Source: Isurus oxyrinchus
Taxonomy: Eukaryota
Length of the DNA: 64,000 nt
Assembly: GCA_026770705.1 (NCBI GenBank)
Contig: JANJGN010000010.1
Span: 17,546,001-17,610,000, forward strand
Reading direction: 5' to 3'
The position numbers and the translations under genes were made by a program. The notes under the pieces are model-generated. The model was not told the DNA's origin. It was given only the letters and a program-made list of their open reading frames with translations, and ran no database searches. Below are positions 11,951 through 64,000 of the stretch, in pieces; within the stretch, counting starts at the first letter, position 1; every line of letters begins with the position of its first letter.

Positions 11951-12177
11951 AATTTCTCGGGATTTAGCTCACTGCACACATCAGAATCTTCTTCTTCTTG
12001 GCTGGCAAAACTCTCCCCAAAGTCCTGATTACTACCCAGAATCATGGTAGAAATGAATGCACATGGATAGCATGTTGGAGATAGACACAGCTATGTTGCA
12101 TTCAGTGGGAGAAATATTGTTTTTCTCACAATTACTGCTCAATCTAAGGTGTAAGAATAACCACTTGAATGACAGAG

Positions 12178-17335: not shown

Positions 17336-17502
17336 TATTCAGAAATTCTGTCACCCTCAGTATTCAGTGGGAGTAAGCACAATTGGCTATTGTTTAATAG
17401 GTGGATATCAGTTTACTGAATCAGGCAGCAGAAGGCATTCTGTGAATCACAACTGTTTTATTGTTAAACTATAGTTTACGACAAATACCAGTTCCCACTC
17501 TC

Positions 17503-28031: not shown

Positions 28032-30026
28032 CAGGCACTCTAGGGCGGTGGGGGGAGAGGTGCGGGGGGGCAGGGGGAGTGGGAGGCTGAAGGTTGGGGT
28101 TGGGGGGGGAGACACAAAGTGGGGGTACCATCTTAGGGGGGCACATGGCATCTCCCCCCGACCAAAGGAGGTACCACCCCTTTCCTTCACGCTTTTAAAC
28201 ATGAGACAATTATAAACCGACAAATAATGATTTAGCCAATAAACATTGCTTCCTGTAGAATACTTTGTCTCCCACCACACAATGTGTCAAGCAATTTGCA
28301 TAACCTGACTATTTCATCTTCGCTACCTTTCTTTCTACAGCAACAGCCTGCACTTATGTAGCACCCCTAATGTTGTAAAACATCCCAATGTACTTTCCAG
28401 GAGGGATTATCAAAGAATGTTTGAAACCGAGCCACGTAAAGAGATATTAGGAGATGAGCTTTGTCAATGAGGTAGGTTTTAAGGAGTGTCTTCAAGGGGA
28501 CAGATAGACAGCGAGGTTTAGAGAGGGAGTTCTAGAATTTAGAACCACGGCAGCTGAATACATGCAGAATACACGTTTACATTTTTTTTTAACAAGAACC
28601 ACCTCCCATCATGTGTGAACAGATTCTGTGCTCTTTCTTTTTAGTTTTACACAAGCCCAACTCAAACCTGACCAGGACCATCACAGAATTCACCATCACC
28701 GGCATGTCCTCCCACATTTGCTTCTTCCTTCCTATTTTGTGGCACTACCCCTCCCACACCAGAAATGTGCCAGTGATGACCCCTAATGGACTTCGCCAAG
28801 GCTTGCTTCATCTATTTTGGTAAGATGTGATGCTCACTTCACAGCTGAATAGATGATCTGTCCGACTTCAATCATTGCTGGAATAAAAAATAGCCGTTCA
28901 AAATTTTCCGCTGTGTCATCTTATACCAAAAGTAAAATTGAGAAGATATTTAACAACACATTTTGAAGCTGAATGTCCTACTTTAAGAAAATGGAGTGAA
29001 TTGAAGAGATAAATTAACTGATAGCTAAAATCACAGGGGTTTCTGAAACATGCAGTTCCTGAATACACATTTGATTAATACTTGCAAAAAATGGAAGGAA
29101 ATCGTGACATGCCTGCAATAACAATCTTTATCACTTCATAAGATTTAACGAGCTATGATTGAAGTCAGACAGATCATCTATTCAGCTGTGAAGTGAGCAA
29201 TTATATTAGAAAAGTAGCTGAAAGCCAGCAGGAGAAACATCACATCTTAACAAAATAGATGAAGCAAGCCTCGGCGAAGTCCACTCGGGGTCATCACTGG
29301 CACATTTCTGGTGTGGGAGGGGTAGTGCCACAAAATAGGAAGGAAGAAGCAAATGTGGGAGGACATGCCGGTGATGGTGAATTCTGTGATGGTCCTGGTC
29401 AGGTTTGAGTTGGGCATGTGTAAAACTAAAAAGAAAGAGCACAGAATCTGTTCACACATGATGTGAAGTGGTTCTTGTTAAAAGAATGTAAAAATGTATT
29501 CAGCTGCCGTGGTTCTAAGTTCTGGAACTCCCTCGCTAAACCTCGCTATCTCTCTGTCCCCTTGAAGACACTCCTTAAAACCTACCTCATTGACAAAGCT
29601 CATATCTTAATATCTCCTTACGTGGCTCGGTTTCAAACATTCTTTGATAATCCCTCACAGAAAGTACATTCAGATGTCTTACAACACTGAGGGTGCTACG
29701 TGAGTGCAGGGTGTTGTTGTAGAAGGAAAGGTTGCGAACATGAAATAGCCAGGTTATGCAAATTGCGTGACACATGGTATGGTGGGAGACAAAGTATTCT
29801 ACAGGAAGCAATGTTTATTGGCTAAATCATTATTTGTCAGTCTATAATTGTCTCATGTTTAAAATCGTGAAGGGAAGGGGTGGTATCTCCTTTGGTGGGA
29901 GGAGGTGCAATGTGCCCATCAGGGGCACCCCTTCAAGATGGTACCTCCACTTTGTGTCTTCCCGCACCCCCTCCAATCCCAACCTCCAGCCTCCCACCCC
30001 CCCACCACCACCCCCTAGAGTGCCTG
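28032..30026. repeat. Large inverted duplication: arms 28032-28879 and 29151-30026, ~270-bp spacer
   Basis: Mirror ORFs 28611..28823(+)/29247..29459(-) and 27882..28280(-)/29774..30124(+) share near-identical peptide stretches. Outer ends caggcactctag/ctagagtgcctg. Each arm includes an L2 3' fragment. Confidence 0.93.
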
Positions 30027-32705: not shown

Positions 32706-32810
32706 GTAATAAAAACAGAAAATGTTGGAAAAACTCAGCAAGCCTGACAGGACCTGTGGAGAGAGAAACAGAGTTAACACTTCGAGTCTGTATGACCCTT
32801 CTTCAGAAAT
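32706..32810 (-). mobile_element. Old Penelope-like 3' end with canonical-core hammerhead-like motif
   Basis: Minus strand reads CTGAAGA-a-GGGTC-ataca-GACTC-GAAG-tgtt-aactctgtttctctctccacag... Confidence 0.65.
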
Positions 32811-34204
32811 TTACTGTGCAGATTTGCTCCTACCAAATTATTCGGGGATACTGATTCTAGTGACCCTACTCTGAGCCAGAGCTGGAACAACAGCAAAACT
32901 GTATATGGAGGGAACGAAGTATTGGCCTATGAGTATAATAGTGAAAGATGATCTGGGGATTGCATGGGGAGGTTGGGGGGGTTCCAACACCTGGATACAC
33001 ATTTTCATCTTCCTCTCAACAATAATGTTGCAGAGCAGTGGTCACCTGCTATCCAACTTTGAGTACATGGCAAAAAACTGTGACTTATAGAATGAAACCA
33101 TCAAATGTGCAGGCCATCAACACTGTAGGAGCATTGCTTGTGAACATTCTCACTGTTAGTACCGGGCTTTAGAGATCAAAGTTCAAGTTAGCATCAACTC
33201 AGTTCAGAAACAGATACAGGCAGGGAGGTTTATAAACTCATTGATGTTCACCATTCTATATTCAGTCAGAGCAGTATGTATAGTGAGCAAATGCCTTCCA
33301 GCATGGCATCTCTAAAGTAGCAGTGGAGTCGATGGTTGGCAACAATGCCAGTACAGTCATAGCTTGGGGGCATCAGGTATTCATGCATAAGTGACAGAGG
33401 CGCTGGCTCTAGCAGTAGTCTACAGCTACTCTAGGAAAGGAAATCAGAGTCAGTAAATCCTTTATATCCCCTGGAGTTGGAAATACAGACAACCACCCCC
33501 TCAGATAGGGGAAACAATGAATAATACAACCAGCATGGGGAAAATTCACAATACACAGAAGGGAAATTTAATATGTGTCCCACTGATTGTACATTGTGGA
33601 TAGTTAACTGTGCCTGCAGGTCATCATGGGCTAGGTGGCATTCTTGAGTCACAGCCTTGAACATGAACTAAGAAATGACTTTATTATAGATATCCATTAC
33701 CCACAGTGAATCATGCATCGCCTAAATCTTAGCTATTCTGAGTTGCTCACTCTTCAATTATAAGTCACCCTCCCAAGACTACACACAGTCCTTTCAGGCT
33801 CTCTGGGAAAGAACTGCTTTGTGCCATTTACTTTAGTTTTGTGGAGACACTTGAAAATTTGTGGGCTAACATCTCGTCCAAACAAAATAGAATAAAATAC
33901 TCGCTTTCCATTTTGAGCAGCTGCAGGTTGTTATAAAATTTACGATCGCTAACTGCCTATATTCAATCACGTTTACTGACATTGCCCAAGATATGGAGAC
34001 TACTGTCCCTCGGATATGCGCTATGGAATCCCTCAGATGTCCCAACACACGGACTCCGTAGGAATTGACTGGGAGCGTGAACTCCAGGACCCTCCGAAAG
34101 GGTTCCATCTCTGAGTTAGAGTCAGAAACTGTGGACAGTTCTGACTTACCTATCTGGATAGTTACCCAGGAAATGTTGGACAGAAAAATCCTAGTCTAAC
34201 TCCT

Positions 34205-34770
34205 GGGCTAGAATCATTGGGTTAGCGTGTGGGGGCGGTGACATCGGGCCTGTGTCCCGACATTACTGCGCGTCATTCCAATCTTCAATTTGGCATGCGC
34301 GTACCGGAGTCGGCTGTGCGCCTGCCGAACTGTCAAAGGCCTACTAAGGCCATTTAAAAACTAATTAAAATAATTAACCGAGCTGACCATCCAAACTTAA
34401 GGTTGGTGGGCAGACGATGAGCCCAGGCGGCCTTCGCATTTATCATGAAACCTCGGGATGATGTTTCATGAAGTGTTTATAAGTTGAATAAAAATTTTTA
34501 TTAAAGTTCATTGACATGAACCAGCTTATGTGACATGACATGAGGGGATGTCTTAAAATTTTTTTTCCCTTTATTTAAATTTTTGATAATCAGACTGATC
34601 TCCCTGAGGCAGCTCTGTGCCTGACTCAGCCTCTTCACCCGCCCGCACAGGGAGTGCTCAGCACTTCTGGGTGCACGTCATGCTGGGCGGGCCGTAATTG
34701 GCCCACCCATGTAAAATGGTGGTGCACAGTCGATCACGGGCGGCGATCAGCTGCGCCCCCCCCCACCGGG
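34205..34770. mobile_element. Harbinger-type MITE of the 41009-41637 family
   Basis: Starts gggctagaatc; shares ggagtcggctgtgcg, aaaggcct.ttaaggc, gaggcagctc.gtgcct blocks with 41009-41637. Followed by a C-rich low-complexity tract to ~35420. Confidence 0.65.
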
Positions 34771-37884: not shown

Positions 37885-39260
37885 AGAATCATTGAATAGT
37901 TACAGCACAGACAGAGGCCATTCGCACCATTGTGTCTGTGTCAGCTCTACTCAGCTTCCTGGAGCACTGCAATTATTTTCTCTTCGGGTTTTCTTATCCA
38001 ATTCCCTTTTGAAAGTCATGATTGAGTCTGCCTCCACCACACTCTCAGTCAGCACATTCCAGATCCTAACCATTCACTGTAGGAAAAGGGGAGGTGGTGG
38101 CATAGTGGTGTTGTCACTGGGGTAGTTCTCTAGGGTAAAAGCAAAAAAAAAGTTCTCTAGGGACTTGGGTTCAAGTCCCACCAGGGCCAATTCAGTTTCA
38201 ATTTAAAAAAAAATTGGAATTTAAAAGTCTGATGATGATTGTGAAACCATTGCTGATTGTCATGAAAATCCATCTGGTTTACTAATATCCCTGCTGGCCT
38301 ACACATGACTCCAGACCCAAAGCAATGTGGTTGACTCTAAAATGCCCTCTGAACAAGGGAAATAAATGCTGGCATAGCCTGCAATCCCATTGTTTCATTT
38401 GCCATTCACCTTAAATCAGACTCTTCTAGTTTGTGACCATTCTTCCAATGGGAGCAGTTTCAACTCTATCTATGCACTCCCATGATTTTGAATAATTCTA
38501 TCAAATCTTCTCTCAACCTTCCCTAAGGAGAACCACACCAGCTTCTCCAATCTCTCTACGTAAGTGAAGTTCCTCATCACAGGATTCATTCTTGGCATAA
38601 TTTCTGCACCCTCTCCAATGCCTTCACATCCTTCTTCAAATGTGGTGCTCAGAATTAGACACAATAATCTGGAAGAGGCTGAGCCAGAGTTTTCTGAAGG
38701 TTCACCATTATTTCTTGCTTTTATACTCTGTGTCACTCTTCATAAAACCCAGGGTCCCGTATGTCTTATCAGCCACTTTCTCAACCTGCCCTGCAAAACT
38801 GAATGGTTTATATGCACGTTCATCCCCAGGTCTCTCTGCTCCTGCCTCCCTTTTCAAATTGCATCCTTTATTTTATATTGCCTCTCCTTGTGCTTCCAAC
38901 CAAAATCTATCACTTCGTACTTCTGTGCATTAAATTTCATCTGCCCTATGTCCACCCATTCCACCAGCCTGTATTCAGTTGAAGTCTATGACTATCCTTC
39001 AAGCAATATTTCCAACCTTTATGTTGTCAGAAAATTTCGAAATTGTGTCCTACACACATAAGTCTTGGTCATTAATAATTACCAACAAAAGCAGTGGTCT
39101 GGTCTCGTACTGACTCCAGGGAAATCCCATTTTATACCTCCCTCCAGTCCGAAAAACTATAATTGATCACTTTTTGTTTCCTGTAATTAAGCCAAGTTTG
39201 TATTCAAGTTGCCACTGTCCTTTTTATTCCAGAGGCTTTAACTTTTCTGACCCACCATGG
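37885..39260 (-). mobile_element. CR1 LINE 3' region interrupted by a SINE
   Basis: cacagaatcattgaatagttacagcacag tail at 37885; RNFTYVERLEKLVWFSL; cagaaaatttcgaaatt corresponds to the KFADD region. Confidence 0.75.
38088..38385 (+). mobile_element. tRNA-derived SINE, short-junction variant
   Basis: A box tggcatagtgg, B box ggttcaagtcc, junction gccctctgaa|caaggg at 38353/38354. Confidence 0.75.
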
Positions 39261-39324: not shown

Positions 39325-40935
39325 TTTTTGTTCATCGGATGTGGGTGTTGCTGGCTGGGCCAGCATTTATTGCCCATCCCTAACTGTTGTTGAGAAGGTG
39401 GTGATGAGCTGCCAACTTGAACTGCTGCAGTTCATGTGGTGTAGGTACACCCACAGTGCTGTTAGGGAGGGAGTTCCAGGAGTTTGACTCAGCGACAGTG
39501 AAGGAATGGCGATAATGTTCCTCAAGTCAGGATAGTGAGTGGCCTGGAGGGGAACATGCAGTGCTGGTGTTCCCATGTCTCTGCTGCCCTTGTCCTTCTA
39601 GATGGTAGTGATCGTGGGTTTGGAAGGTGCTGTCTAAGGAGCCTTGGTGAGTTCTTGCAGTGCATCTTGTAGATGGTATACACTGCTCCCACTGTGCTTC
39701 AGTGGTGGAGGGAGTGAATGATTGTGGATGGGGTGCTAATCAACTGGACTGCTTTGTCCTGAATGGTGTCAAGCTTCTTGAGTGTTGTTGGAGCTGCACT
39801 CATCCAGGCAAGTGGAGAGTATTCCATCACACTCCTGACTTGTGCCTTGTAGATGGCAGACAAGCTTTGGGGAGTCAGGAGGTGAGTTACTCACTGCAGG
39901 AAACATAAGACCATAAGACACAGGAGCAGAAGTAGGCCATTCGGCCCATCAAGTATGCTGTGCCATTCAATGAGATCATGGCTGATCTGATAATCCTCAA
40001 CTCCACCTTCCTACTTTTTCCCCATAACCCTTGATTCCCCCACTGATTAAAAATCTATCAATCTCAGCCTTGAATAGACTTAATGACTCAGCCTCCACAG
40101 CCCTCTGCATTAAAGAATTCCATAGATTGACTACTCTTTGAGAGAAGAAATTCCTCCTCATCTTTGTCTTAAGTGGGCACCTCCTTACTCTGAGATTATG
40201 CCCTCTACTTCTAGTCTCTTCCACAAGGGGAAACAACTTCTCAGCATTTACCCTTTCAAGCCCCCTAAGAATCTTATATGTTTCAATAAGGTCGCCTCTC
40301 ATTCTTCTAAACTCCAATGAGTACAGGCCCAACCTACTCAACCTCTCCTCATAAGAAAATCCTTCCATACCCAGAATCAGTGAACCTTCTCTGGACTGCC
40401 TCCAATGCTAGTATATCTTTCTTTAGATAAGGGAACCAAAACTGTTCACAGTATTCATGGTGAGGTCTAACCAGTGCCTTGTATAGTTTTAGCAAGACTT
40501 CCCTATTTTTATACTCCATTCCCTTTGAAATAAAGGCCAACATTCCATTTGCCTTACCCATTACTTGTTGAACTTGTATGCTAGCTTTTTGTGATTCATG
40601 CACGAGGACTCCCAAATCCCTCCGTGATGCAGCTCTCTTCAGTCTTTCTCCATTTAAATAGTATTCAGCTCCTCTATTCTTCCTGCCAAAGTGCATAACC
40701 TCACACTTTCCCACATTATATTCCATCTACCACGTTTTTCCTAACCTCTGACCTGTTCTTGTATCCATAGTATGTATATGGCTGGTCCAGTTCACTTTCT
40801 GGCCGATGGTAACCCCAGGATGTTGATAGTGGGGGAATTCAGCAATGGTAATGCCATTGAACTTCAAGGGGCGATGGTTAGGGTCGCTCTTGTTGGAGAT
40901 GGTCATTGCCTGGCACGTGTGTGGCACGAATGTTA
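39325..40935 (-). mobile_element. 3' portion of the tRNA-headed CR1-group LINE family, split by a CR1 insertion at 39901-40727
   Basis: 39325-39900 and 40728-40935 align colinearly with 53730-54480 (CQAMTISNK...FNGITIAE). Confidence 0.85.
39901..40727 (-). mobile_element. CR1 LINE 3' fragment (relatively young)
   Basis: MEYNVGKCEVMHFGRKN, LYKALVRPHHEYC, SYEERLSRLGLYSLEFRRMRGDLIETYKIL; cataagaccataagac tail. Confidence 0.92.
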
Positions 40936-41008: not shown

Positions 41009-41637
41009 GGCCAGAATTTTACATTCGGTGTGCAGGCACGCACCCGATTTTGCCGAAATGTAAAATGACGTGCGATGATGTCGTCGGGAATGCGTCCCGA
41101 CGTCATCGCGAACTCACGCAATATTTTGTTCAGCGGGCTCGCATTGGAGTCGGCTGCGCGCCCGCCGATAATTGAAAGGCCTATTAAGGCAACTAACCAG
41201 GTAATTAAGTTGAATTTTACGCTGCCCGTCCAGCCTTACAGTTGGTGGGCAGGCAATAAGGCCAAGCAGCCTTTACATTTTTTAGGAAACCTCACCCACG
41301 AGCGGGATGAGGTTTCCTAAAGCTAATACAAATTAAATCAAAACTTCCTTCTGCCATTAAAAGCATGTCCTATCTCATGAGGCAGCTCCGTGCCTCGGGG
41401 AGGCTGAAGCGCTCTTTCGCGCGCACACGCAAACTGCACGCTCGACCCGGATCTCCCTCCTCCTCCCACCCGCCCCCGCCCGCACAGGCAGCGCTCAGCT
41501 CTGCCGCTCGCGGTCCATGCAGGGCAGGCCTTAACTGGCCCGCCCGCGTGAAATCGTGGTGCGGAGCTGATCGCAGGCGGCAGACGGCACCCCGCCTGCC
41601 CTCACCGAGCCCGCCTGACAAATGCAGAATTCTGGCC
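41009..41637. mobile_element. Harbinger-type MITE, CpG-rich (young)
   Basis: TIR GGCCAGAATT / AATTCTGGCC; flanks cag/cac; relatives at 34205, 45105 and 62340-62733. Confidence 0.8.
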
Positions 41638-41764: not shown

Positions 41765-43955
41765 TCAACAACAACAACTTATATTTATATAGCACATTAA
41801 ATGTAATAAAACATGCCAAAAGAGCAATATAAAAGAAACATGACAGTGGACCATATAAGGAGATATGAGGTCAGTTGACCAAAAGCTTGGCTAAATAGGT
41901 AAATTTTAAGGACTGTCTTAAGGAAGGAAAGTGAAGTAGTAAAGCAATGAGACATAGGGAAGAAATTCCAGAGCTTCAGGCCTAGGCCAACTGAAGGCAT
42001 GGCAACCTACGATGGAGTGATTAATATCAGGGATGCACAAGAAGCCAGAACTAGAGAAATGAAAATATCTCAGAGGGTAGTAGAGCTGGAGGAGATCACA
42101 GAGATAGGCAGAGTGAGGTCATGGAGGGAATTGAAAATGAGGATGCATATTTTAAAATCAAGTCTTTGCTTGAACAGGAGCCAATGTAGGTTAGGGGACA
42201 CAGGGTTAATAGGGGAGTGGGACTTGGTGTGTTTTAAGGCACAGGCAACAGTTTTGGATGACCTCAAGTTTACAGAGGGTAGAATATGGGGGACCAGCCA
42301 ACAGCGTATTGGAATATTCGAGATCTAGAGGTAACGAAGGCATGAATGAGGGTTTCAGTGGCAGGTGAGCTGAGACAGGGACAAAGTCAGACGATGTCAG
42401 GGAGGCGGAAATAGGTGGTCTTAGTGATGGCATGCACATGAAGTCAGAAGCTTATTTCTGGGTCAAATGTAACACCAAGGACAGAATCATCCCAGGTTTG
42501 CTCTAAGCACGGTAGTGGGCAGGAAAAGGGCATTTTAACTGCTGGCCACAATGGCTGCTTTTCACGTCCTATCGTCCCATTCCTGCCTCATTAATTATGC
42601 AGCCACAGGAAACACGCCGTCTTGCTGGCAAACGGCCTTCAAATTTGCCTCGCCGCTTCCTCATGCAGGGCGCCATATTTAAACTACAGCGGTGCGTACA
42701 CTTCTCAATGCTTGCAGTCTAGGAGGGCACTGGTGAAGACATGGTCCCAAAGGCTAAGAAGAGTGCAGCACCCCACCCCAACCCGATTCAGTGGCGCATC
42801 CCTGGGATGCCTTCTGGACATCATGGAGGCCTGCTGTGATGCGCTCTGGCCGCAGGAGGCCCATCAGTCTCACCACTCTGGCTCGGGAGGCGGTGCAGAG
42901 GTGGTCGGTGTCAATGCTGCACACAAGAGGTCGGCCATCTAGTGCAGAAAACGGATGAATGATCTCATCTGTACCGCCAGGGTAAGGCAACCATCTCATC
43001 ACTCTAAGCTCACACACTCATAAGGCCATCACACATTCACTGGCATTTCACTTACTGACATCACTACTCACTCTCACAGACACCCTCACATCTCCATCTC
43101 GTCTCATCTCCTCTGGGAACTGCCTCTTCAGCCCTCCATCTTGAGGTCACTTGCACAGAACTTGTGCCTCCACACACACCCTGGGATATCCCCCTTCCCC
43201 AGTACAGCCTTCGTCATGCAGTCTCTTCCCTTGCCTGAGGCCACTTCTCCCCTTTCCCCAAGCAAGCCCTAGCTCTGCAGCCATTGAAAGGCCATCCCCG
43301 CCTTATGGCTGGCCTGGTGGGTAGAGACCTGCCCGTGACCACTCCCCCCCCACAAAAAATGATGTGGTGCTGTGAAGCCTGGCACTAATGACCACAAGCC
43401 CTGTCCAAAGGAAGGTCTGCAAACAAACCTCGAAGTCCCAAGTGAAATGCAGTTTGCCCGATGCACGTCGTTTATGTACAGTTGTGAAACACACTGGCAT
43501 CCAATCACGCTGACATGATCCAGCGTGGGGGGACGATTCTGGTGAGCAGGGCTTATAATTAGATGCAAATGTATTAAAATGAAGTTCCTGACATCTGGAA
43601 GCAGGCAACGCTTGCTGCCACTGAAGACGGGGGTGGAGTGGATGATCACAAACTGCTTTCACAATGGTGTAAAAACGATTTTTGGCCTTCTCGCCATATT
43701 GTCTGCTCACACCCGCCATGACACCCGGTGCCAATGGCAGCAGAAAATTCCGGCCCAAGGACGTGAACAGATTGGCTTAATCTCAGACTGTTGCCAGTGA
43801 GAGGGATGGAGCTGGTAGCTAGGGGACGGAGTCCGGAGCAGGGAACGAAAACAATGGCTTCAGTCTTCCCAATACGTAATTGAAGGAAATTTCTGCTCAT
43901 CCAGTACTGAATGTTGGTGGTGAGGCAGAGCTGGGTGTCATCAGGGTACATGTGA
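41765..43955 (-). mobile_element. L2 LINE RT/3' fragment interrupted by Harbinger element 42479-43755
   Basis: MYPDDTQLCL..WMSRNFLQLRIGKTEAIVF (L2-type YADDTQL), LHWLLFKQRLDFKI, (GTT)n tail at 41767. Confidence 0.85.
42479..43755 (+). mobile_element. Non-autonomous Harbinger element carrying only Myb/SANT exon 1
   Basis: Ends GGACAGAAT / ATTCCGGCC with exact TSD caa (42476-42478, 43756-43758). 42741-42981 reads MVPKAKKSAAP..RFSGASLGCLLDIMEA...I*CRKRMNDLICTAR then gtaagg. Confidence 0.85.
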
Positions 43956-44415
43956 AAAAACAGTTAAGAACCAGAGTTAAGCATGTGCAGGATGTTAAGG
44001 TGGCATTGGCGTTCAAATTTCATGTTTACCTTATTTTCAGGATTATTCGCAGGTCCGTGTGCAATTTTCAGCTCGTGTAGGAAGCACACTGAATGGTAGG
44101 ATGGAAAATTGTGTGTAAATGAAATTTAACATGATGGGGACAGTTAAAGGAAAGTGCTGTAATGAGGTGCCAAAATACTGAAAGCCTGCAGCTTTCACAT
44201 AGCACCTGAACCTGTTAGCAAGCTTTGCCAAGGCTAAGAGGGCAAAAGATTGCATTGCAAATGATTGTGTCGTATGATTACCAGGATGATAGAAGGGAAC
44301 TTAGATGGACCTCAGTGTTATCTTGTCAGCAATTCCTCAATTCCTAAGATTATGAAGTCCGGGTAAAAACGAGGTTAAAGGAAACCCAAGATGTATGAGT
44401 CTGCAATCGCATGTT

Positions 44416-44754
44416 GGGGAAAGGCAGTGGCATAGTGGTATTGTCACTAGACTAGTATTCTAGAGACCCAGGGTAATGTGCTGGGGACTAAAGTTCAAAT
44501 CCCACAATAGCAGATGGTGAAATTTGAATTCAATTAAAAAAAAAGCTGGAATTAAAAGTCTGATGATAACAACAAAACCCATCACTGATTTATGCAAAAA
44601 CCCATCTGCTTCACAAATGGCCTTTAGGGAAGAAAATCTGACCCCTGAGACCCACAGCAAAGTGGTTGTAAATACCCTTTAAAATAGGGCAATTAGGGGT
44701 GGGTAATAAACACTGGCCTAGCCAGTGACACCTACATCCCATGAATGAATAAAA
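44416..44754 (+). mobile_element. tRNA-derived SINE
   Basis: A box tggcatagtgg, B box gttcaaatcc, tail gggcaattagggg...catcccatgaatgaataaaa. Confidence 0.85.
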
Positions 44755-45029
44755 TCTTAAAATGATATAGTAACCTGATTGGAGATGGTGGTTTGCTTTC
44801 TCTTGCCATTCTGAAAAGATGAAGGAAGTAAGACACATATAAAGGAAGTCTAGAGAAATGGTGCAGGAGGGAGGGCTTTATATCCCTGGGGAATTGGGTT
44901 TGTTGCAGGGGGAGATGGGATCCGCATAAGCCAGACTTGTTGCCCCCTTACCCAGGACCAGGACCATTATTTTAACAGGGACGTTTCCTAGTGCTGTTGA
45001 GGAGGATTTACAAACGGAAAAGAAAGCCT

Positions 45030-45890
45030 GTTATAACGCAGGAAATGCAGCAGCTAATTTGCGCACAGTTAAGTTTCCACAAACTGCAATGTGATAATGA
45101 CCAGGGGCAGAATTTTACGTCCCGTGGATGGGTGTAAAATCACGCGAAAATCACGATTGGGCAAGTGTCCTGACATCATCCCAAGCTCGCGCCATATTTC
45201 ACTCAACGGTCTGACAGGCGCAAAAGTCGGAATCGAGCCCACCGACAACTAAGAGGGCAATTACGCCCATTAACGGCGCAATTGTCTCTGACTTTTTGCT
45301 TGGCGGACAGGTGAATCGGCCAGGCGATCTTTGCATTTTTCATGAAACCTCATCCAAGACGGGATGAGGTTTTTGTTATTAAATTTTTTAAAAAAATCTG
45401 TGGAAAGCATTTTTATCGTCTGTACGTTCAGGTGCCTGATTGTGATGCTTGGATGTTTTTTTTCCTGTCTTTCGAAACTTTATATCATGGTTTTCGGGTC
45501 CGCAGCTCCCCGAGGCAGCTCTCTGCCTTCAGGAAGCTTTCCATCAGCGCTGGCCCACGCCCGTGCTGACATCATTGCCCGCCATCCTCCTGCCCCCTTC
45601 CCGGCAGCGCTGAGCTTTTCAGCGCGTGTTTCAGCATGTAGTCACAGTTGGGGACCAATCACAGTCAGCGGTCCGTTCCCCGACTGCTCCCGGGCCCACC
45701 GATCGTGCCCGCCCATCCAGCTTAAAATTCAGGCCCAGATAATCTGTTTTTTTCTTGTGATGTTGACTGACGGATAAATATCGGCCAGGACACCAGGGAT
45801 AACTCCCTTACGCAGCTTTGAAATAGTGCTACCTGAGACGGCAGGCGGGGCCTCAGTTTAATGTTTCATCCAAAGGATGGTACAGCACTC
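45030..45890 (-). mobile_element. DeuSINE (SacSINE1/AmnSINE1-like) fragment interrupted by a MITE
   Basis: Reverse complement matches the Deu domain (ggtgtcctggcc.atatttatcc, acagattatctggtcattatcacattgc, tgcgcaaatt.gctgc); empty site gaccagataatc restored on removing 45105-45738. Confidence 0.75.
45105..45735. mobile_element. Harbinger-type MITE
   Basis: TIR GGGCAGAATTTT / AAAATTCAGGCC with exact TSD cag (CWG type). Confidence 0.85.
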
Positions 45891-50144: not shown

Positions 50145-50364
50145 CTAGACAAGAAAAGAGAAGTTCACGTTACTCAAAATTTTCTACATTGGAGCTGAGC
50201 AAATAATCTTCATTCACCCAAAAAATACCCTCCATTTCGTTGCAGAGAAACGTATTCAAAACTTCTTATAGAAACGTATGTGCATATTATAATCATCAAT
50301 AATGTACTATGCCAGAAATTATATAATGAAACAAGCTATGTGTACACAATAGGGAATGAGAGCT

Positions 50365-50703
50365 GTCATTGAACTAATCATCCAGAGACCCAGGGTAATG
50401 CTCCGGGGACTTGGGTTCGAATCCTACCATGGCAGATGGTGGAATTTGAATTCAGTGAAAATCTGGAATTAAAATTTAATGATGACCATGAAACTATTGC
50501 TGATTACTGTAAAAACCCATTTGGTTCAGTAATGTCCTTTAGGGAAGGAAATCAGCTGTCCTTACCTGGTCTGGCCTACTGGCGACTCCAAACCCACAGC
50601 AATGTGGTTGACTCTCAAATGCCCTCTGAACAAGGGCAATTAGGGATGAGCAATAAATGCTGGCCTAGCCAGTGATGCCCATATCCCATGAATGAATAAA
50701 AAA
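50365..50703 (+). mobile_element. tRNA-derived SINE, short-junction variant
   Basis: B box ggttcgaatcc, junction gccctctgaa|caagggcaattaggg at 50630/50631, tail catatcccatgaatgaataaaaa. Confidence 0.85.
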
Positions 50704-50754
50704 CACTTATTTTTGTTAAGCATGGAAGCCCATTACAATGATTAAGAGCTTATT

Positions 50755-51390
50755 TGATTCATTTGTGAGATGTGGGCATCTCTGGCTAGATCAGCATTTA
50801 TTGTCCATCCCTAAGTGCCCTTGAGACGGTGCTGGCAAGCTACCTTTTTGAACCACTGCAGTCCATGTGGTGTAGGTACACCCACAGTGCTGTTAGGGAG
50901 GGAGTTCCAGGATTTTGACCCAGCAAATTGAAGGAACGGTGATATATTTCCACATCAGGATGGTGAGTGACTTGGAAGGGAGCTTGCAGGTGGTGGTGTT
51001 CCCAGGCACCTGCTGCCCTTGTCCTTCTAGATGGTAGAAGTCCCATGTTTGGAAGCTGCTGTCGAAGGAGTCTTGGTGTGCATCAGTGGTGGAGGGAGTG
51101 AATGTTAAAGGTGATGGATGGGGTGGCAATTGAGCGGGCTGCTTTGTCCTGGATGGTGTTGAGCTTCTTGAGTGTTGTTGAAGCTGCCCTCATCTAGACA
51201 AGTGGAGAGTGTCCCATCACACTACTTACTTACGCTTCGTAGATGGTGGACAGGCTTTGGGAAGTTAGGAGGTGAGTTACTCTCTGTAGGATTTCCAGCC
51301 TCTGACCTGCGCCTGAAGCCACAGTATTTATATGGCTAGCCTAGTTCAGTTTCTCATCAATAGTAACCCCCCCAGGATGCTGATAGTCTC
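50755..51390 (-). mobile_element. 3' fragment of the tRNA-headed CR1-group LINE family
   Basis: Colinear with 53730-54375 apart from an internal deletion. Confidence 0.85.
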
Positions 51391-53726: not shown

Positions 53727-56700
53727 ATTTTTTTGTTCATTTTTGGACCTAAGCATCGCTGGCAAGGCCAGTATTTATCATTCATCCTTAACTGCTCTTG
53801 AGACGGTGAGTCAACTTCTTGAATGGCAGCAGTCCATGTATTGTTAGTACACACACTGTGCTGTTAGGGAGGGGGTTGAAGGATTTCGACCCAGAGACAG
53901 TGAAGGAATGGCGATATATTTCCAAGTCAGGATGGTGTGTGGCTTGGAGGGGAACTTCCAGGTGGTGGTGTTCCCATGTGTCTGCTGCCCTTGTCCTTCT
54001 AGATGGTAGTGGTCATGGGTTTTGGAAGGTACTGCCAAAGGAGCCTTGGTGAGTTCCTGCAGTGCATCTTACAGATGGTATACACTGCTGCCACTGTATG
54101 TCGGTGATAGAGGGAGTGAATGTTTGTGGATGGGCTGCCAATGAAGCCAGCTGCTTTGTCTTGGCCAGTGTTATTGGAGCTGCACTCATCCAAGTGGAGA
54201 GTATTCCATCACACTCCTGACTTGTGCCTGTAGATGGTGACAGGCTTTGGGGAATCAGGAGGTGAGTTAGTCTTCACAGGATTCCTAGCCTCTGACCTGC
54301 TCTTGTAGCTACAGTATTTATATGGCTAGTCCAGTTCAGTTTCTGGTCAATGGTAACCCCCAGGATGTTGATAGTTGGGGATTCAGCAAAGGTAATGCCA
54401 TTGAATGTCAAGGGGCAATGGTTAGATTCTCTCTTGTTGGAGATGATCATTGCCTGGCATTTGTGTGGTGCAAATGTTACTTGCCACTTGTCAGCCCAAA
54501 CTTGGACACTGTCCAGGTCTTGCTGCATTTGGACATGGACTGCTTCAGTATCTGAAGAGTCGTGAATTGTGCTGAACATTGATGATTGCACAATGAACAT
54601 CCCCACTTCTGACCTTTTGATGGAAGGTAGGTCACTGATGAAGCAGTTGAAGATGGTTGGGTCTAGGACACTACCCTGAGGAACTGAGACAATGAACTAG
54701 CAGCAACTACAACCATCTTCCTATGTTTTAGATATAACTCCAACCAGTATTGAGTTTTCCCCCTGATTCCCAGTGATTTCAACTTTATAAGGGCTCCTTG
54801 ATGCTACACTTGGTCAAATGCTGCCTTGACGTCAAGGGCAGTCACTCTCACCACACCTCTGAAGATCAGCTCTTTTGTCCATGTTTGAACCAAAGCTGTA
54901 ATGAGATCAGGAGCTAAGTGACCCTGGCAGAGACCAAATTGAGCATCAGTGAGCAGGTTAGGCAAGTGCCGTTTGATAGCACTGTAGTTGACCCTTTTCA
55001 TCAATTTACTGATGATCGAGAGTAGGCTGATGGGGCAGTAATTGGCCAGGTTGGATTTGTCCTGCTTTATTTTTGTGTACAGGGCATTCCTGGGCAAATT
55101 ATCACATAACTGGGTAGATGCCAGTGTTGGAACAGCTTGGCTAGGGGCACAGTAAGTTCTGGGGCACAAGTCTTCAGTACTATTGCCAGAATATTGTCGG
55201 GGCTCATACCCTTTGCAGTATCCAGTGGCTTCAGCCATTTCTTGAAATCAGTTGGAGTGAATTGAATTGGCTGAAGACTGGCATCTATCTTGCTGGAGGT
55301 CTCCGGAGAAGGCCGAGATGGATCATCCACTCGGCACTTGTGGCTGAAGATGCCTGCAAATGTTTCAGAATTAATCTTTTGCACCGATGTGCTGGGCTCT
55401 CTCATCATTGAGGATTGAGATATTTTTGCAGCCTCCTCTTCTAGTGAGTTGTTTAATTGTCCACCACCATTCACGACTGGATGTAGCAGGACTGCAGAGC
55501 TTAGATCTGATCATTGGCTGTGGAATGCTTAGCTCTGTCTATCGCATGCTGCTAATGCTGTTCGGCATGCAAGTAGTCCTGAGTTGTAACTTCACTAGAT
55601 TGACACCTCATTTATAGGTATGCCTGGTGCTGATCCTGCCATGCCCTCCTGCACTCTTCATTGAACCAGAATTGATCCCCTGGCTTGGTAGCGGTAATGG
55701 TTGACTGGGGATATACCGGGCCCTGAGGCCGCTGATTGTGGTTGAGTACAATTCTGCTGCTGCTGACGGCCCCCAGCACCTCATGTCCAGTCTTGAGTTG
55801 CTAGATCTGTTCAAAATCTATCCAATTTAGCATGGTGGTACTGCCACACAACACGATGGAGGATTCCCCCAGTGTGAACGTGGGACTTTGTCTCCACAAA
55901 AATTGTGTGGTGGTCACTCTTACCGATACTGTCATGAGCAGGCAGGTTGGTGAGGATGAGGTCAAGTATGTTTTTCCCTCTTGTTGGTTCCCTCACCAAC
56001 AGCGCAGACCCAGTCTAGCAGCTAAGTCCTTTAGGACTCAACTAGCAGTGGTTCAACTGAGCCATTCCCCACCCAGAGTACATTTGTGCCCTTGCCACCC
56101 TCAGTGTTTCCTACAAATGGTGTTCAACATCGAGGAGTACTGTTCCATTAGCTGAGGGAGAGCAGTATGTGGTAATCAGCTGGAGGTTTCCTTGCCCATG
56201 GTTGACCTGATGCCATGAGATTCATGGGGTCCAATGTTGCTGTTGAGGACTCCCAGGGAAACTCTCTCCCAACTTTATATCACTGCGCTGCCGCCTCTAC
56301 TGGGTCTGCCCTGCAGGTGGGACAGGACATTCCCAGGGAAGAAGATGGTGGTGGGGGACATTATCTGTAAGTTCTGATTCTGTGAGTATGACTGTGTCCG
56401 ACTGTTGCTTGACTAATCTGTGGGATGGCTCTCCAAATTTTGGCACAAGCCCCAAGAAGTTAAATGTTAGTAAGGAGCACTTTGCAGGGTCGACAGGGCT
56501 GAGTTTGCTGTTGTCGTTTCCAGTGCCTAAGTCAATGCCGGGTGGTCCGTCCGGTTTCATTCCTTATAGGCTTTCTAGTGGTTTGATACAACTGAGTGGC
56601 TTTCCAAGGCCATTTCAGAGGGCATTTAAGAGTCAACCCCATTGCTGTGGGTCACATGTAGGCCAGACTAAGTAAGGATGGCTGATTTCCTTCCCTAAAG

Positions 56701-56887
56701 GACACTAGTGAATCACATGCATTTTTATGATAATTGACAATGGTTTCATGGTCATTTGACTTTCAATTCCAAGTTCCCATTGATTGAATTCAAATTCCAG
56801 AGGGATTTGAACCCAGGTCCTCAGAACTCTGCCTGGGCCACTGGATTACTAGTCCAATGACAATACCACTACACCACCACCTCCCCC
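53727..56887 (-). mobile_element. Near full-length single-ORF (APE endonuclease + RT) CR1-group LINE with a tRNA-like 5' head, pseudogenised
   Basis: GLVPKFGEPSHRLVKQQSDTVILTES (APE), PTRGKNILDLILTN..GKSDHHTI, NYCPISLLSIISKLM, ALDVKAAFDQV, MQQDLDSVQVWADKWQVTFAPHKCQ, ILGVTIDQKLNW. A box 56876-56866, B box 56813-56803. No room for ORF1. Confidence 0.88.
56803..56876 (-). promoter_or_regulatory. Type 2 RNA polymerase III internal promoter (A and B boxes)
   Basis: Minus strand TGGTGTAGTGG ... GGTTCAAATCC, tRNA-like spacing. Confidence 0.7.
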
Positions 56888-57945
56888 AAGTTAAAACAAG
56901 CACTATCACTGAAGAGGAAATACCAGGCAAACTAATGGCACTGTAAGCTGACAAGGCTCCTGGACCTGATGGCCTGCATCCTAGAGTCTTAAAAGAAGTA
57001 CTTGCAGAAATAATTGATACAGGAATTCACCAAGGCTCCTTTGACAGCACCATTCAAACCCACGATCACTACCACCGAAAGACAAGAGCACTAGATAGAT
57101 GGGGAACATCACCGCCTGGGATTTCCCCTTCAAGTCACTCACCATCCTGACTTGGAAATATATTACCGTTCCCTTCACTGTCATTGGGTCAAGATCCTGG
57201 AACTCCCTTCCTAACAGCACTGTGGGTCTACCTACACCACATGGGCTGTAGCGGATCCATGTGTCCTAGTGCATGGAGAAAAGGTTTGCATGGAGATACA
57301 GCTAGTAATTGGGAAAGTTAATAGACTGTCATCGTTTATTGTGAGGAGAATTGAATATAAAAGTAAGGAGGTTATGCTTGAGTTGTACAGGTGAGATCAC
57401 ATCTAGAGTACTGTGCTTGGCATTGGTCTCCTTATTTAAGGAAGGATGTATACGCGTTAGAAGCAGTTCAGAGAAGGTTTCTCGACTAATACCAGGAATG
57501 GGAGGCTTGTCTTTTTAGGAAAGGCTGGACAGGCTGGGCTTGTAACCACTGGGGCTTAGAAGAGTAAGAGGTGACTTGATTGAAAACTTTAAGATCCTGA
57601 GGAATCTTGACAGCATGGATATAGAAAAGACGTTTCCTCTTGTGGGAGAATCTAGAACTAGGGGTCACTGTTTAAACATAATGGTTTGCCCATTTAAGAC
57701 AGAGATGAGGAGAAATTTTTTCTGAGGGTTATGGCTCTTGCAACTCTCATTCTTAAAAGGCAGTGGAGGCAGAGTCTTTGAATATTTTTAAGGCAGACGT
57801 AGATAGATTCTTAATAAATAAGGGGGTGAAAGTTTATGGGGGGTAGGTGGGAGGTTACAAACAGATCAGTCATGATCTTATTGATTGGCTGAGGAAGTTT
57901 GAAGGGACAATGGTCCTACTCATGCTCCTAGTTTCTATGTTTGTA
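56888..57945 (+). mobile_element. CR1 LINE fragments with a nested piece of the tRNA-headed LINE (57028-57255)
   Basis: gacaaggctcctggacctgatggcctgcatcctagagtc (KAPGPDGLHPRV), gaagcagttcagagaaggttt, 3' end gatcagtcatgatcttattg. Confidence 0.8.
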
Positions 57946-58099
57946 TGCTGGTAGTTTGTGGAAGCAGTCTCACAGCATGGATCCTATGATGATAACCCTC
58001 AGGCTTTTGTCAACAAATATCTATTTAAATTGTGAGCACCAAGTTTTTTCAACTGAGAGTCACAGCAAGCTGTTATGTTTACAAAATTTAAAAAACAAG

Positions 58100-58524
58100 T
58101 GATTCTGACCCAGCGACAGTGAAAGAACGGTGATATATTTCCGAGTCAGGATGATGAGTGATTTGGAGGGGAACATCCAGGTGGTGGTGTTCCCATGTAT
58201 CGACTGCCCTTGTCCTTCTAGATGGTAGCGGTCATGGGTTTGGAAGGTGCTGCCTAAGGAGCCTTGTAGTGCATCTTGTAGATGGTACTCACTGCTGCCA
58301 CTGTTCATCGGTGGTTTGTGGATGTGGTGCCAATCAAGTGGGCTGTTTTCTCCTGGATGGTGTCAAGTTTCTTGGGTGTTGGAGCCACACTCATCCAGGC
58401 AAGTGGAGAGTATTTCATCCCGCTCCTGACTTGTGTCCTGCAGATGGTGGACAGGTTTTGGAGAGTCAGGAGGTGAGTTACTTGCCGCAGGGTTCCTAGC
58501 CTCTGATCTGCTCTTGTAGCCAAA
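58100..58524 (-). mobile_element. Fragment of the tRNA-headed LINE family; resumes at 59769-59797 after a Harbinger insertion
   Basis: ATRADQRLGTLRQVTHLLTLQNLSTICRTQVRSGMKYSPLAW; gctcttgtagcc...agtattcatatggctggtccagttc is split by 58525-59768. Confidence 0.8.
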
Positions 58525-59768
58525 GGGTGGAATGTTCCGTGCCCACGTGTTCAGTGGTGTGAGTGGGCAATATGGCAAGATGTCATGAAACCAGTTTGCA
58601 ATCATCTGTTCAGCCCGTCAATGGTGGGCCGCGTTTCCCACACATTATGTAATAAATCTGCATATCATTATAAGGCCAGCTCGCCAGACTCATCTCCCCA
58701 TGCTGAATTGTCCACCCATGCCAGCATGATTGCATGGCGACATATTTCACAGCTGCACATAAGTGCCGTGTACCTGGCGAGCTGCACTTTGAAGTTTGTT
58801 TGCCTATCTTGCTTAGGGCAGCACTTGCAGTCATCAGTACCAGGTTTCACAGACAGCACCACATCACTTTTAGGGGGGCACGTGGGCAGGTCTCTACCTA
58901 CCAGACCAGCCGTAAGACAGGGATGGCTTTGTACAGCTGCAAAGGCTTGCTTGAGGAAGGGGGTGAAGTGGCCCCAGGCAAGGGAAGAGGCTGCAGAGTG
59001 AGGGCTGAACTGGGGAAGTGGGGTATCCCAGGGTTTGTATGGGGGCACAAGTTGCTCTGTGCAAGTGGCGTCAAGATGGTGAGGGCTGAGGAGGCTGTCT
59101 CCAGAGGAGATGAGGCCAGATGGAGATGTGAGGGTATGTGTGAAAGAGTGAGTGGTGATGTCCCTTGAACTGGCAGTGGGTGAGATGCCAATGAATGTGT
59201 GATCGGCTTGACTGTGTCAGTTTAGAGTGATGAGATGGCTGCCATACCCTGGTGGCATGGATTAGGTCGTTCATCCTCTATCTGCACTAGATGGCCAACC
59301 TCTTCTGTGCAGCATTGGCGCTGATCACTACTGCCATCACCTACAAAGCTGGAGTGGTAATGATGCTGACCCTTGTGCAGCCAGAGCGTGGGTAGGGGAC
59401 AGCACGGCGGGCCTCCACAGCATCCAAAAGGCACGCGAGGGACGCATCACTAAACCTGGGGGCTGCAGTCTTCTTGTCTTTCGGGGCCATGTCTTCTTTG
59501 CAGCAGCCCTGGGCTGGAAGCACTGAGAAGTGTGCACACAGCTGTACTTTCAATGTGGCGATGGCATGATGAGGTGGCAAGGTGACGGCGTTGCGGGTGA
59601 ATCGGAGGCTGCCTGCCATCAAAGGAAACATGTTTCCTGGGAATACATAATTAATGCGGCGGGTTTGGGGCGTAACAGCGTGAAAAGTCGCCATTGCGGC
59701 CGGCGAGTGAAATGTTCCTTTTACCCGCCCACTACTGCACTTAGTGCAAATCTGGGATGTTTCATCCT
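58525..59768 (-). mobile_element. Second copy of the Myb-exon-1-only non-autonomous Harbinger element
   Basis: Reverse-complement homolog of 42479-43755; 59490-59248 reads MAPKDKKTAAPRFSDASLACLLDAVEARRAVPYP...MNDLIHATR then gtatgg. Confidence 0.85.
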
Positions 59769-60925: not shown

Positions 60926-61905
60926 CAAATGGAGAAAGATTAAAGAATGCTGCAGTACAGCATTGCCCTTATCCATGAAACAGAAATAGTTATCGTGCAG
61001 GTACATCAAATAATCAGTAAAGTGATTGAAGATATCATCAACAGTACTATCAAGCGGCAGTTGTTCAGCAATAACCTGCTTACTGATGCTCAGTTTGGGT
61101 TCCGCCGGGTCATTCAGCTTCTGACCTCATTACAGCCTTGGCTCAAATGCTTCAGCCAGCATTCATTGCCCATCCCTAATTGTCTTTGGCAGTGGTGTGG
61201 GCAATTGGGGATGGGCAATAAATGCTGGCCCAGCCGTGAAGCCCACATCCCATAAATGAATAATAAAAACATGCCAAGTGGACTTCTGGCCTTTACTGCA
61301 AGTGGAAATATAAAAGTAGGGAAGTCTTGTTACTTCTTTACACAGTTTTGGTGAGACCACATTTAGAGTATTGTGTGTAATTCTGGTCTCCTTAGTTAAG
61401 GAAGGACGTACTTCCATTAGAAGGAGTTCAGAGAAGGTTCACTAGGGCTGATTCCTGGGATGAAAGGGTTGTCTTAAGAGGAAAGGTTGAGCAGGTTGGG
61501 CTGATACTCAGAGGGTAAAAGGATGACAGGTGGTCTTGTTGAAAGGTTCTGAGGGGACGAGACATGATAGATGAGGATGTTCCCCCTCATTGGGGAATCT
61601 AGAACTAGAGGGCATAGTTTCAGAATAAGGGCTCTCCCATTTAAGATGGAGATGAGGAGGAATTTCTCCTCTCAGATGTTCGTGAATCTTTAGTATTCTC
61701 TGTCCATGAGCAGTGGAGGCGAAATCATTAAATATATTCAAGGCTGAGTTAGACAGATTTCTGAACTATGAGGGTTATGGGGAACAGACAGGAAAGTAGA
61801 GTTGAAGTCAAGACCAGGTCAGCATGATACTATTGAATAGCAGAACAGGCTTGAGAGGCACAATGGCCTAGCCTACTCCTGCTCCTATTTCTTCTGTTCT
61901 TATGT
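60926..61905 (+). mobile_element. CR1 3' fragment containing a rearranged insert of the tRNA-headed LINE family (61010-61270)
   Basis: ggtgagaccacatttagagtattgtg, gaaggagttcagagaaggttcactagg, tail actcctgctcctatttcttctgttcttatg. Confidence 0.8.
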
Positions 61906-62339: not shown

Positions 62340-62733
62340 ACATTTTACAAACGTAACACATACATTTGTCACATGAGCAGGGACATGTCAGAAATTAGTT
62401 TGAAAAACTTTTTTTTAAAATCACTGATCAAAACCTCATCCCGCTTGTGGATGAGGTTTTGCAAAAAATGCAAAGGCCGCCTGGCCAATTCGCCTGCCCG
62501 CCAACCGTAAGGTCGGCAGGGCAGCGAAAAATTTCTTTTAATGATGACTTTAATGGCCTTAATAGGCCACTTAATTGTCAATGGGCGCGCTGCCGACTCC
62601 TGAGCGTGCGCGCCAACAGAAATATCGCACCAGTGTGTGATGATGTCAGGTCACTTGCCCGATGTCATCGCGCGTCATCTTACGCTCGTTTGGGTCAGGC
62701 ACACACCCGCCCGACGAGCGAAATATTCTGCCC
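62340..62733. mobile_element. Partial Harbinger-type MITE (41009-41637 family, inverted)
   Basis: Reverse complement of 41009-41370; ends aatattctgccc. Confidence 0.7.
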
Positions 62734-62859
62734 CATGAGAAATTATGTACTAATAAAAGGACAGACAAAGAACAAATGTAGCAGTTCAAAACTGGGCATC
62801 GATGAGACACTTTGGACCACCGTTAGCAGGAGAATTATATTCCACCACAATTTGTAACC

Positions 62860-64000
62860 TCAGGGCCCAGCATATTTCTCACTTTTCTATTATGATCAAA
62901 CCAGGCGTATTGCCCCATGGAGAGTATGCTGGAGCAGCACCAGACACACCTAAAAATGAGGTGCCAATCTGGTGAAGCAGCTACAGGGGCCACATGCTTG
63001 CTAAACAGCAGAAGCAGCAAGCTACGTTCAGAGTTAATTGATCGCACAAACAATGAAGCAGATTAATCCTGCAGTAGTCCTGCTGCATCCAGTTGTGAAT
63101 GGAGGTGGACATTTAAACAACTTACTGGAGGAAGAAGCTCCACAAATATCCCCATCCTCAATGAAGGAACCCAGCACAAGAGTCCAAAAGACAAGGCTTA
63201 AGAATTTGCAACCAGCTTCAGCCAGAAGTGCCGAGTGGATGATCCATCTCTGCCGCCTCCTGAGGTCCCACCATAAGAGAAGCCAGTCTTAAGCCAATAA
63301 GATTCATTCCACATGATATCAAGAGATGGTTGAATGCAGTGGATATTGCAAGGGCTGTAGGCCACAACAACACCTTAGCTATAGAGATCCATCACCAACT
63401 ACACCTCTAACCAAACTAAAAACAGAATTACCTGGAAAAACTCAGCAGGTCTGGCAGCATCGGCAGAGAAGAAAAGAGTTGACGTTTCGACTTTTCCTTC
63501 TCCACTGCTGCTGCCAGACCTGCTGAGTTTTTCCTGGTAATTCTGTTTATGTTTTGAATTTCCAGCATCCGCAGTTTTTTGTTTTTACACCTCTAACCAA
63601 GTTGTTCCAGTAGAGCTACAGCATTGACATCTACCTGACAGTGTGGAAATTGCCCAGATATGCCCTGTCCATTATTACCCTGTTAGTCTACTCTCAATCA
63701 TCAGTAAAGTGATGGAAGGTATCACCAACAGTGCCATAAGTGGCACTTACTCAGCAACAACCTGCTGACCAATGATAGGTTTGGGTTCTGCCAGGGCCAC
63801 TTGTCATCAGGCTCCAGTCATCATTACAATCTTAATCCAAACATGGGCAGAAGAGCTGAGTCCAGACGTGAGGTGAAAGTGACCACCCTTGACACCAAAG
63901 CACCTTTTGACTGAGTGTGGCATCAAGGAGCCCATTCAAAACTGAAATCAATGGGAATCAGGGGGAAACTCTCCAAAGGTTGGAGCCATACCTAGCACAA
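62860..64000 (+). mobile_element. Internal RT-region fragment of the tRNA-headed LINE family, running off the window
   Basis: Reverse-complement homolog of ~54790-55720; gtgaccacccttgacaccaaagcaccttttgactgagtgtggcatcaagg matches the LD.K.AFD.VWH motif. Confidence 0.85.
63415..63585 (+). mobile_element. Short Penelope-like inverted-repeat insertion
   Basis: Inverted arm from aaaaacagaattacc (63418), forward arm and tail to 63585; TSD tacacctctaaccaa at 63400-63414 and 63586-63600; removing it restores the host LINE. Confidence 0.85.

Follow-up and report, generated by a model that had tools for sequence, protein, structure and literature searches.

A 3.16-kb element (also given as about 3.15 kb) on the minus strand of a 64,000-nucleotide stretch of Isurus oxyrinchus DNA, here called the window, is identified as a decayed, near-full-length copy of an elasmobranch CR1-Zenon LINE. 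It occupies positions 53728–56887 and consists, in order, of a tRNA-derived head, a body, an APE endonuclease and reverse transcriptase (APE-RT) region and a tail. That a tRNA-like head and body are truly joined to APE-RT in this element is almost certain. Judged from the consensuses compared below, the tRNA-derived head is the fixed 5′ end of the elasmobranch Zenon lineage, in sharks and a ray alike. It suggests, without showing, that RNA polymerase III (Pol III) makes a retrotransposon that codes for protein. The usual division assigns LINEs to Pol II, as mRNAs, and SINEs to Pol III, as short RNAs that do not code (PMC10886601, PMC5786205). Pol III transcription combined with cap-independent translation is the leading explanation for elasmobranch Zenon, and one that we hold to be slightly favoured.

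Layout and identity of the element

The features discussed here are collected in Table 1. Downstream of the head and body, a profile made from full-length relatives covers positions 56452–53803, its collinear segments scoring E 1e-9 to 1e-68, and Pfam RVT_1 also matches the element, in two pieces. A Pfam search of this broken copy did not detect the APE; the local profile did. The copy is dead: the profile match shifts frame at least six times, stops are numerous and the RT active-site motif is damaged. A reading of the same DNA made without database searches (the sequence-only reading) had followed the SINE body to 56590 and from there, without a tail, into APE and RT, a course now confirmed by the SINE alignment, the profile and Pfam RVT_1. 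It had also placed the end of the element in a shared tail near 53730, where an A-tract indeed lies (53734–53728).

A single ORF with APE and RT is a Zenon feature, as is a poly-A tail, represented by A-tracts of about 4–7 nt in the focal copy and in other tails of the window. ORF1 is absent, since only about 300 nt separate the 5′ end from the ORF, which is too little space. The earlier observation of its absence stands; the view that this is unusual does not, because Zenon, found in five elasmobranchs, has a poly-A tail and no ORF1 in all sequences surveyed in PMC13343379, a work of 2026 on CR1-group elements. The same source already catalogues the family, which had been thought possibly uncatalogued. 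Assignment to the Zenon lineage comes from the 5′ 400 nt of the focal copy, which are collinear with seven consensuses classed as Zenon by RT phylogeny in that work. A tree of 35 hand-picked RT rows groups the focal RT with shark fragments (100/99); it was dropped as a clade assignment, having no labelled references and a bootstrap that had not settled.

The close protein matches that carry a name belong to gene models of four sharks, Heptranchias, Pristiophorus, Rhincodon and Cetorhinus. None of 57 candidates was confirmed in a protein search with the N-terminal 88 codons, and further protein searches confirmed 3 of 399 and 1 of 198, all of them shark gene models and none a full-length ORF. 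A GTDB scan with the junction motif returned no match; when the query was a protein from a shark gene model, there were 80 pattern matches, none confirmed. In agreement with the sequence-only reading, no convincing TSD was found at any of eight ends in the window; the copies are 70–87% mutually identical, so that short TSDs may have decayed. The sole candidate, an 8-mer, stands at distances of 15 and 27 nt from the two ends of the SINE at 38088.

Table 1. Features of the focal Zenon element, the SINEs and the other Zenon copies in the window
Feature	Position	Strand	Basis
tRNA-derived head, ~93 nt; anticodon arm and T arm separated by an extra stem-loop; acceptor stem unpaired	56795–56887	-	same head in 7 consensuses
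Pol III A box	56866–56876	-	motif search
Anticodon-like arm: 5-bp stem, 7-nt loop, middle triplet AGT	56841–56857	-	folding
Pol III B box	56803–56813	-	motif search; 52 nt from A box
Body (5′ leader) common to SINEs; 9 upstream ATGs; best-conserved, probably structured block at ~56700–56590	56590–56794	-	alignment
True 5′ end of the long ORF (likely), with A-rich linker, Arg-rich extension and first APE motif but no ATG in frame	56463–56589	-	frame starting 56639
Conserved ATG, out of frame with endonuclease	56558–56560	-	same offset by eye in HypSab_Zenon-1 (stingray)
APE endonuclease, broken	55763–56480	-	profile E 8.5e-20; whale-shark gene model P0167
Linker, RT and C-terminal region, disrupted by frameshifts and stop codons	53788–55762	-	profile, Pfam
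3′ tail common to SINEs: small hairpin and short A-tract	53728–53800	-	window comparison, folding
SINE, long junction, Squalus-type variants in head and body	22249–22625	+	alignment
SINE, short junction, degraded	38088–38385	+	alignment
SINE, short junction	44414–44755	+	alignment; internal deletion
SINE, short junction, 5′-truncated, no A box	50364–50703	+	alignment
5′-truncated Zenon copy split by CR1 insertion (39902–40737)	39338–40935	-	alignment
5′-truncated Zenon copy	50750–51387	-	alignment
Zenon 3′ fragment	57020–57250	+	alignment
Zenon fragment	58101–58520	-	alignment
Zenon fragment with tail	61010–61270	+	alignment
Internal Zenon fragment, interrupted by palindromic insertion, cut by window end	62770–64000	+	alignment

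The tRNA-derived head

The A and B boxes read earlier at the minus-strand 5′ end were confirmed, and with their workable spacing they give the head the box arrangement of a type 2 Pol III unit; in the stingray consensus the B box is degenerate. Likeness to tRNA models is weak. ARAGORN called no tRNA gene, Rfam at its gathering threshold gave no match in the window and no ribozyme or IRES family in the head, and the Rfam tRNA match reached 12.6 bits (E 4.2) in one homologous SINE copy and covered the T arm only in the focal copy. That same SINE copy folds into D-like, anticodon and extra arms; folding z-scores ranged from -1.3 to +1.1, none significant. Read by eye, the loop triplet would indicate a Thr isotype. 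By eye too, the extra arm of the Squalus rows nearly duplicates the anticodon arm, and that of the Carcharodon row shows paired changes that preserve the stem. In the consensuses, again by eye, the 3′ strand of the acceptor stem has a possible alternative partner in the body, some 110 nt downstream. The pattern is that of a SINE head bearing a promoter and not that of a tRNA destined for processing.

Behind the head, the leader contains a block that is probably structured, as the consensuses read by eye indicate; RNAalifold on four decayed copies found two-sided change in 3 of 47 pairs. An excess of tRNA calls, including intron-containing and long-arm selenocysteine types, has been described in sharks (Squalomix preprint 10.1101/2025.06.08.657570). 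Zenon and SINE heads with the extra arm could yield some of these calls. The loop triplet of the focal head, however, is AGT and not the Sec anticodon.

Conservation of the head-ORF junction

The head-ORF junction occurs once in the window, where the other Zenon fragments lack a 5′ end, and was compared with the first 400 nt of each consensus in Table S2 of PMC13343379. Head, body and APE-RT junction are collinear, by eye, in all seven elasmobranch Zenon consensuses, which span five orders (CarCar_Zenon-1, HypSab_Zenon-1, RhiTyp_Zenon-1, ScyCan_Zenon-1 and SquAca_Zenon-1 to -3), and the tRNA-like head and body are missing, again by eye, from all three hagfish and coelacanth Zenon consensuses. 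Exact body motifs match only those seven elasmobranch rows in the same table. Six B-box variants, sought in the first 400 nt of 1,003 CR1-group consensuses, matched five rows, all of them elasmobranch Zenon. A Rhincodon (whale-shark) gene model translates through the linker into APE and so spans the junction.

Because all seven consensuses and the whale-shark gene model carry it, the junction is regarded as a family trait of sharks and a ray, not a chance product. The worry that it might be unique to this locus is not borne out, and the full-length forms carry the same head and no ORF1. A chance SINE insertion, a one-off recombination or a consensus artefact arising from abundant SINEs could be argued from the single occurrence in the window, the lack of an enclosing TSD and the way in which the consensuses of PMC13343379 were built, by automatic extension and manual curation. 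That account is scarcely credible and largely refuted, since the junction is common to seven separately built consensuses, the focal genomic copy and the whale-shark gene model.

Zenon makes up 0.7–6.8% of five elasmobranch genomes, a figure that probably includes the SINE (PMC13343379). Denominators in its Table S3, taken as near-full-length copies, run from 59 to 2,313 per family, and not all of these copies need keep the head. Copies scored there as ORF-intact number 3 of 612 in the stingray, 1 of 1,419 in the whale shark and probably 6 of 3,750 in the spiny dogfish. The last count was read from the SquAca_Zenon-1 row of Table S3 (PMC13343379), where the value 675852 equals the spreadsheet date June 3750, so that 6/3750 was probably meant.

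SINEs in the window and their descent

The first ~300 nt of the LINE, head and body, are 65–74% identical to four SINE copies in the window. The match extends to 56590 for the long-junction SINE (22249) and to 56614 for the short-junction SINEs (50364, 38088); the BLAST match to the copy at 44414 ends at 56684 because of that copy's internal deletion. The SINEs thus consist of the first ~275–300 nt of the LINE followed by its last ~70 nt, with the jump to the tail after 56614 (short type) or 56590 (long type). All four combine a tRNA-derived head, of weak Rfam tRNA similarity, with a LINE-derived tail in the manner of SINE2 elements, a class that is short and non-coding and from which the long element differs in its 3.16 kb and APE-RT remnants. 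Being built from the 5′ and 3′ ends of a partner LINE, they also resemble SIDEs of the Persaeus type, but those have no Pol III promoter, whereas A and B boxes are present in three of the four copies.

By eye, the long-junction SINE carries variants of the Squalus rows of Table S2, and the short-junction SINEs those of the Carcharodon and Scyliorhinus rows (PMC13343379). It is strongly suggested by these alignments that the SINEs are internal-deletion derivatives of the LINE that kept its promoter and tail, and the two break points, each tied to its own LINE type, favour repeated LINE-to-SINE derivation. The proposal that the LINE is parent to the window's SINE is upheld to that extent.

The reverse course would begin with a headless Zenon that gives rise to an internally deleted element; this would gain a tRNA head as a SINE and return it to the LINE by recombination through the shared body. 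Its first two steps follow the published SINE route (PMC5786205), lepidopteran Zenon yields such deletion derivatives (PMC6740152), and other Zenons have no head, so that the head was gained at some point. Two SINE types with different break points, each bearing the variants of another LINE subfamily, nevertheless fit derivation after the head had been fixed, and we consider the reverse course rather unlikely as an account of these SINEs; it and the LINE-to-SINE route can both hold at different times, and the LINE may first have acquired its head by way of a SINE intermediate (PMC5786205).

Start of the APE-RT reading frame

The sequence-only reading had the coding frame begin at about 56560. 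The ATG at that position was rejected as the start codon, since its frame differs by 2 (mod 3) from that of the first APE motif (56480–56463), which matches the N-termini of the full-length relatives P0040 and P0070. It looks in frame in the focal copy only because of a 7-nt insertion at about 56463–56457, absent from the SquAca_Zenon-3 row, that joins the two frames. In four consensuses the APE frame is open upstream to about 56589, through an Arg-rich stretch and an A-rich linker, with no ATG; in the focal copy the same stretch has one stop, at a CpG-type change. Two rows speak against this when read by eye: the SquAca_Zenon-1 linker is out by one base, and in the gappy SquAca_Zenon-2 the ATG is in frame. 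The open frame starts where the conserved block ends, which is also the break point of the long SINE. The nine ATGs that precede the out-of-frame ATG in the leader make a poor fit to cap-dependent scanning.

On this evidence the ORF probably starts without an AUG, and we infer internal non-AUG initiation as the simplest reading of its start. The 'Top_ORF2_length' values of PMC13343379 were rejected as a clue to the start codon, the ORF definition given with them being unclear. The conserved block itself contains an upstream ORF of about 25–28 codons (56643–56561, minus strand) that stops at, overlaps or enters the out-of-frame ATG, depending on the species (by eye).

A Pol III RNA might instead be translated from the conserved AUG at 56560, or from an upstream AUG, with a ribosomal frameshift into the APE frame. 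The ATG is kept in six of the seven consensuses with a purine at -3, and in most of them the upstream ORF ends at it or enters it (by eye). However, no slippery heptamer is conserved across species, the frame relation between upstream ORF and APE varies among the consensuses, and in four consensuses and the window copy the linker upstream of the ATG can be read through in the APE frame (by eye), all of which makes frameshifting unlikely and leaves non-AUG initiation the preferred reading.

Transcription of the element

In the proposed mechanism the head would serve as an internal promoter, with TFIIIC on the A and B boxes, and Pol III would transcribe the whole RNA of about 3.3 kb, stopping at the first T-run in the flank. 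The uncapped RNA would be translated by internal, non-AUG initiation just past the conserved structured block into one APE-RT protein, which would bind the 3′ hairpin and A-tail and copy the RNA by target-primed reverse transcription, the established mechanism of LINEs. SINEs would arise from it by internal deletion, with promoter and tail retained.

Vertebrate Pol III terminates at four or more T. Runs of this kind (T4+) on the sense strand number 4 in 6,601 nt of Zenon (ten segments) against 28 in 6,595 nt of CR1 (seven segments). For Zenon, shuffling single bases predicts 12.4 (P 0.003), shuffling dinucleotides 9.2 (P 0.027) and permuting synonymous codons, the strictest null, 8.1 (P 0.053). 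A4 runs are low in Zenon too (21 observed against 35.8 expected, P 0.003), which makes it doubtful that the deficit is specific to T4. Phe codons show no avoidance of TTT (16/43 vs 100/273, P 1.0), and their bias was rejected as evidence of terminator avoidance. Neither of two testable T4 sites is common to Zenon copies, compared with 5 of 20 A4 sites and 3 of 9 CR1 T4 sites, in a test that covers the copy overlap of 1,907 of 3,150 nt, about 40% of the element (1,243/3,150 nt) being single-copy in the window. One of the two T4 runs of the focal copy coincides with a nonsense codon and hence arose after insertion. When decay was simulated, a T4-free start ended with 3–6 runs and a shuffled start with 14–16. 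The seven consensus 5′ ends, which are not independent of one another, have no TTTT, against 2,750 in the 1,003-row file (~2.7 per row; PMC13343379). The T-run data are compatible with a terminator-free ancestor, selection for such an absence being not proved.

The main competitor treats the head as a fixed passenger or chromatin element: Pol II would make the full-length RNA, starting at a promoter within the body or reading through from the host, and Pol III would yield only the short RNAs of the SINEs or LINE transcripts that abort. As a rule LINEs are Pol II units (PMC10886601, PMC5786205), the scarcity of T-runs may stem from a general bias towards C-ending codons, and several tail copies have an AATAAA hexamer at the A-tract. 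On the other hand, the head stands exactly at the 5′ end of all seven consensuses, in five orders, with A and B boxes mostly intact; a promoter within the body would not regenerate it; and the unpaired acceptor stem (by eye) makes RNase P processing of a read-through RNA unlikely. We regard a passenger head as a minority possibility to be taken seriously. Among the points against transcription of the LINE by Pol III is size, since known retroelements with Pol III promoters are shorter than about 1.3 kb (PMC10886601).

Pol III transcription remains the reading that we prefer. In its fullest form, Zenon would be transcribed by Pol III from end to end with terminators purged over 3.3 kb, its uncapped RNA would be translated in an IRES-like, non-AUG manner, with the SINEs derived from it by deletion it would occupy up to ~7% of shark genomes, and part of the excess shark tRNA calls may be due to its long-armed heads. 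That combination is tentative, falling somewhat short of an even chance.

Relation to known elements

The elasmobranch Zenon consensuses (PMC13343379, Table S2) and the whale-shark 'CR1-Zenon like LINE' (bioRxiv 10.1101/443036) belong to the same family as the focal element, mostly about 3.2–3.3 kb long with a single APE-RT ORF, no ORF1 and an A-tail. The word 'tRNA' has no match in the main text of either paper, and a tRNA head, a partner SINE or an out-of-frame ATG does not appear in their available sections. Lepidopteran Zenon is likewise ORF1-less and about 3.3 kb long, with a short element, Persaeus, made from its 5′ and 3′ ends; unlike the shark SINEs, Persaeus is stated to have no tRNA homology and no Pol III promoter (PMC6740152). 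A precedent for LINEs containing tRNA-like sequence is given by RTE-1_DAn and relatives, which differ from Zenon in belonging to the RTE clade and are mentioned in passing, with no position, promoter role or mechanism in the passage concerned (PMC5786205).

A small-RNA-derived Pol III promoter is shared with tRNA-headed SINE2 elements with bipartite LINE parts (Bov-tA, hagfish SINE2-1_EBu) and with TRIMp3 elements (Cassandra, Helenus), but these are short and non-coding, whereas in the shark Zenon the LINE itself carries the head. R2, Ingi/L1Tc and RTE are ORF1-less LINEs with structured 5′ ends and unusual 5′ processing, and R2 has AUG-independent translation. These elements rely on HDV-like ribozymes and on Pol I or Pol II, in contrast to the shark element, in which Rfam found no ribozyme.

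No tRNA-headed shark LINE and no Pol III-transcribed autonomous LINE was found in the mostly open-access literature searched. The parts available of PMC7245038, PMC6685494, PMC5499810, PMC1513397, PMC10886601 and PMC11481361 hold no match to the focal element. The Zenon family is known; its tRNA head and AUG-less ORF start appear to be unreported, and the head or the SINE may be annotated elsewhere.

Other repeats in the window

The two halves of the Zenon copy at 39338–40935 are collinear, so the CR1 3′ fragment that interrupts it was inserted later. At 50364–51387 a SINE (plus strand) and a truncated Zenon (minus strand) face each other with their tails, some 45 nt separating them. Upstream of the focal head, the flank (56890–57950) holds an antisense CR1 ORF2 piece, then a Zenon 3′ fragment, then another CR1 3′ end. 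Five short palindromic elements (12177–12431, 17502–17646, 19808–19990, 32711–32811 and 63411–63590) are 77–97% alike in pairwise pieces, two of them with clear terminal direct repeats of 13 and 15 bp. We take this family to be possibly Penelope-derived; one member lies inside a Zenon copy and is therefore younger than that copy. The arms of an inverted repeat (28073–28879 / 29151–30003), each ~800 bp long and 89% identical to one another, enclose an AT-rich spacer of 270 bp; this may be a DNA element of the foldback kind. Three more interspersed families are 65–75% alike: 42484–43576 / 58650–59763; 23066–23618 / 41767–42358; and 34235–34744 / 41060–41581 / 45134–45396 / 62367–62683.

Implications

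With the Zenon head in place, a single deletion leads directly from LINE to SINE. As a few copies scored as ORF-intact exist, the Pol III model is testable. If it is true, a LINE lineage with a fixed tRNA promoter would blur the divide between Pol II LINEs and Pol III SINEs, and elasmobranch Zenon would be a natural case of an ORF of about 1,000 codons expressed from a Pol III transcript.
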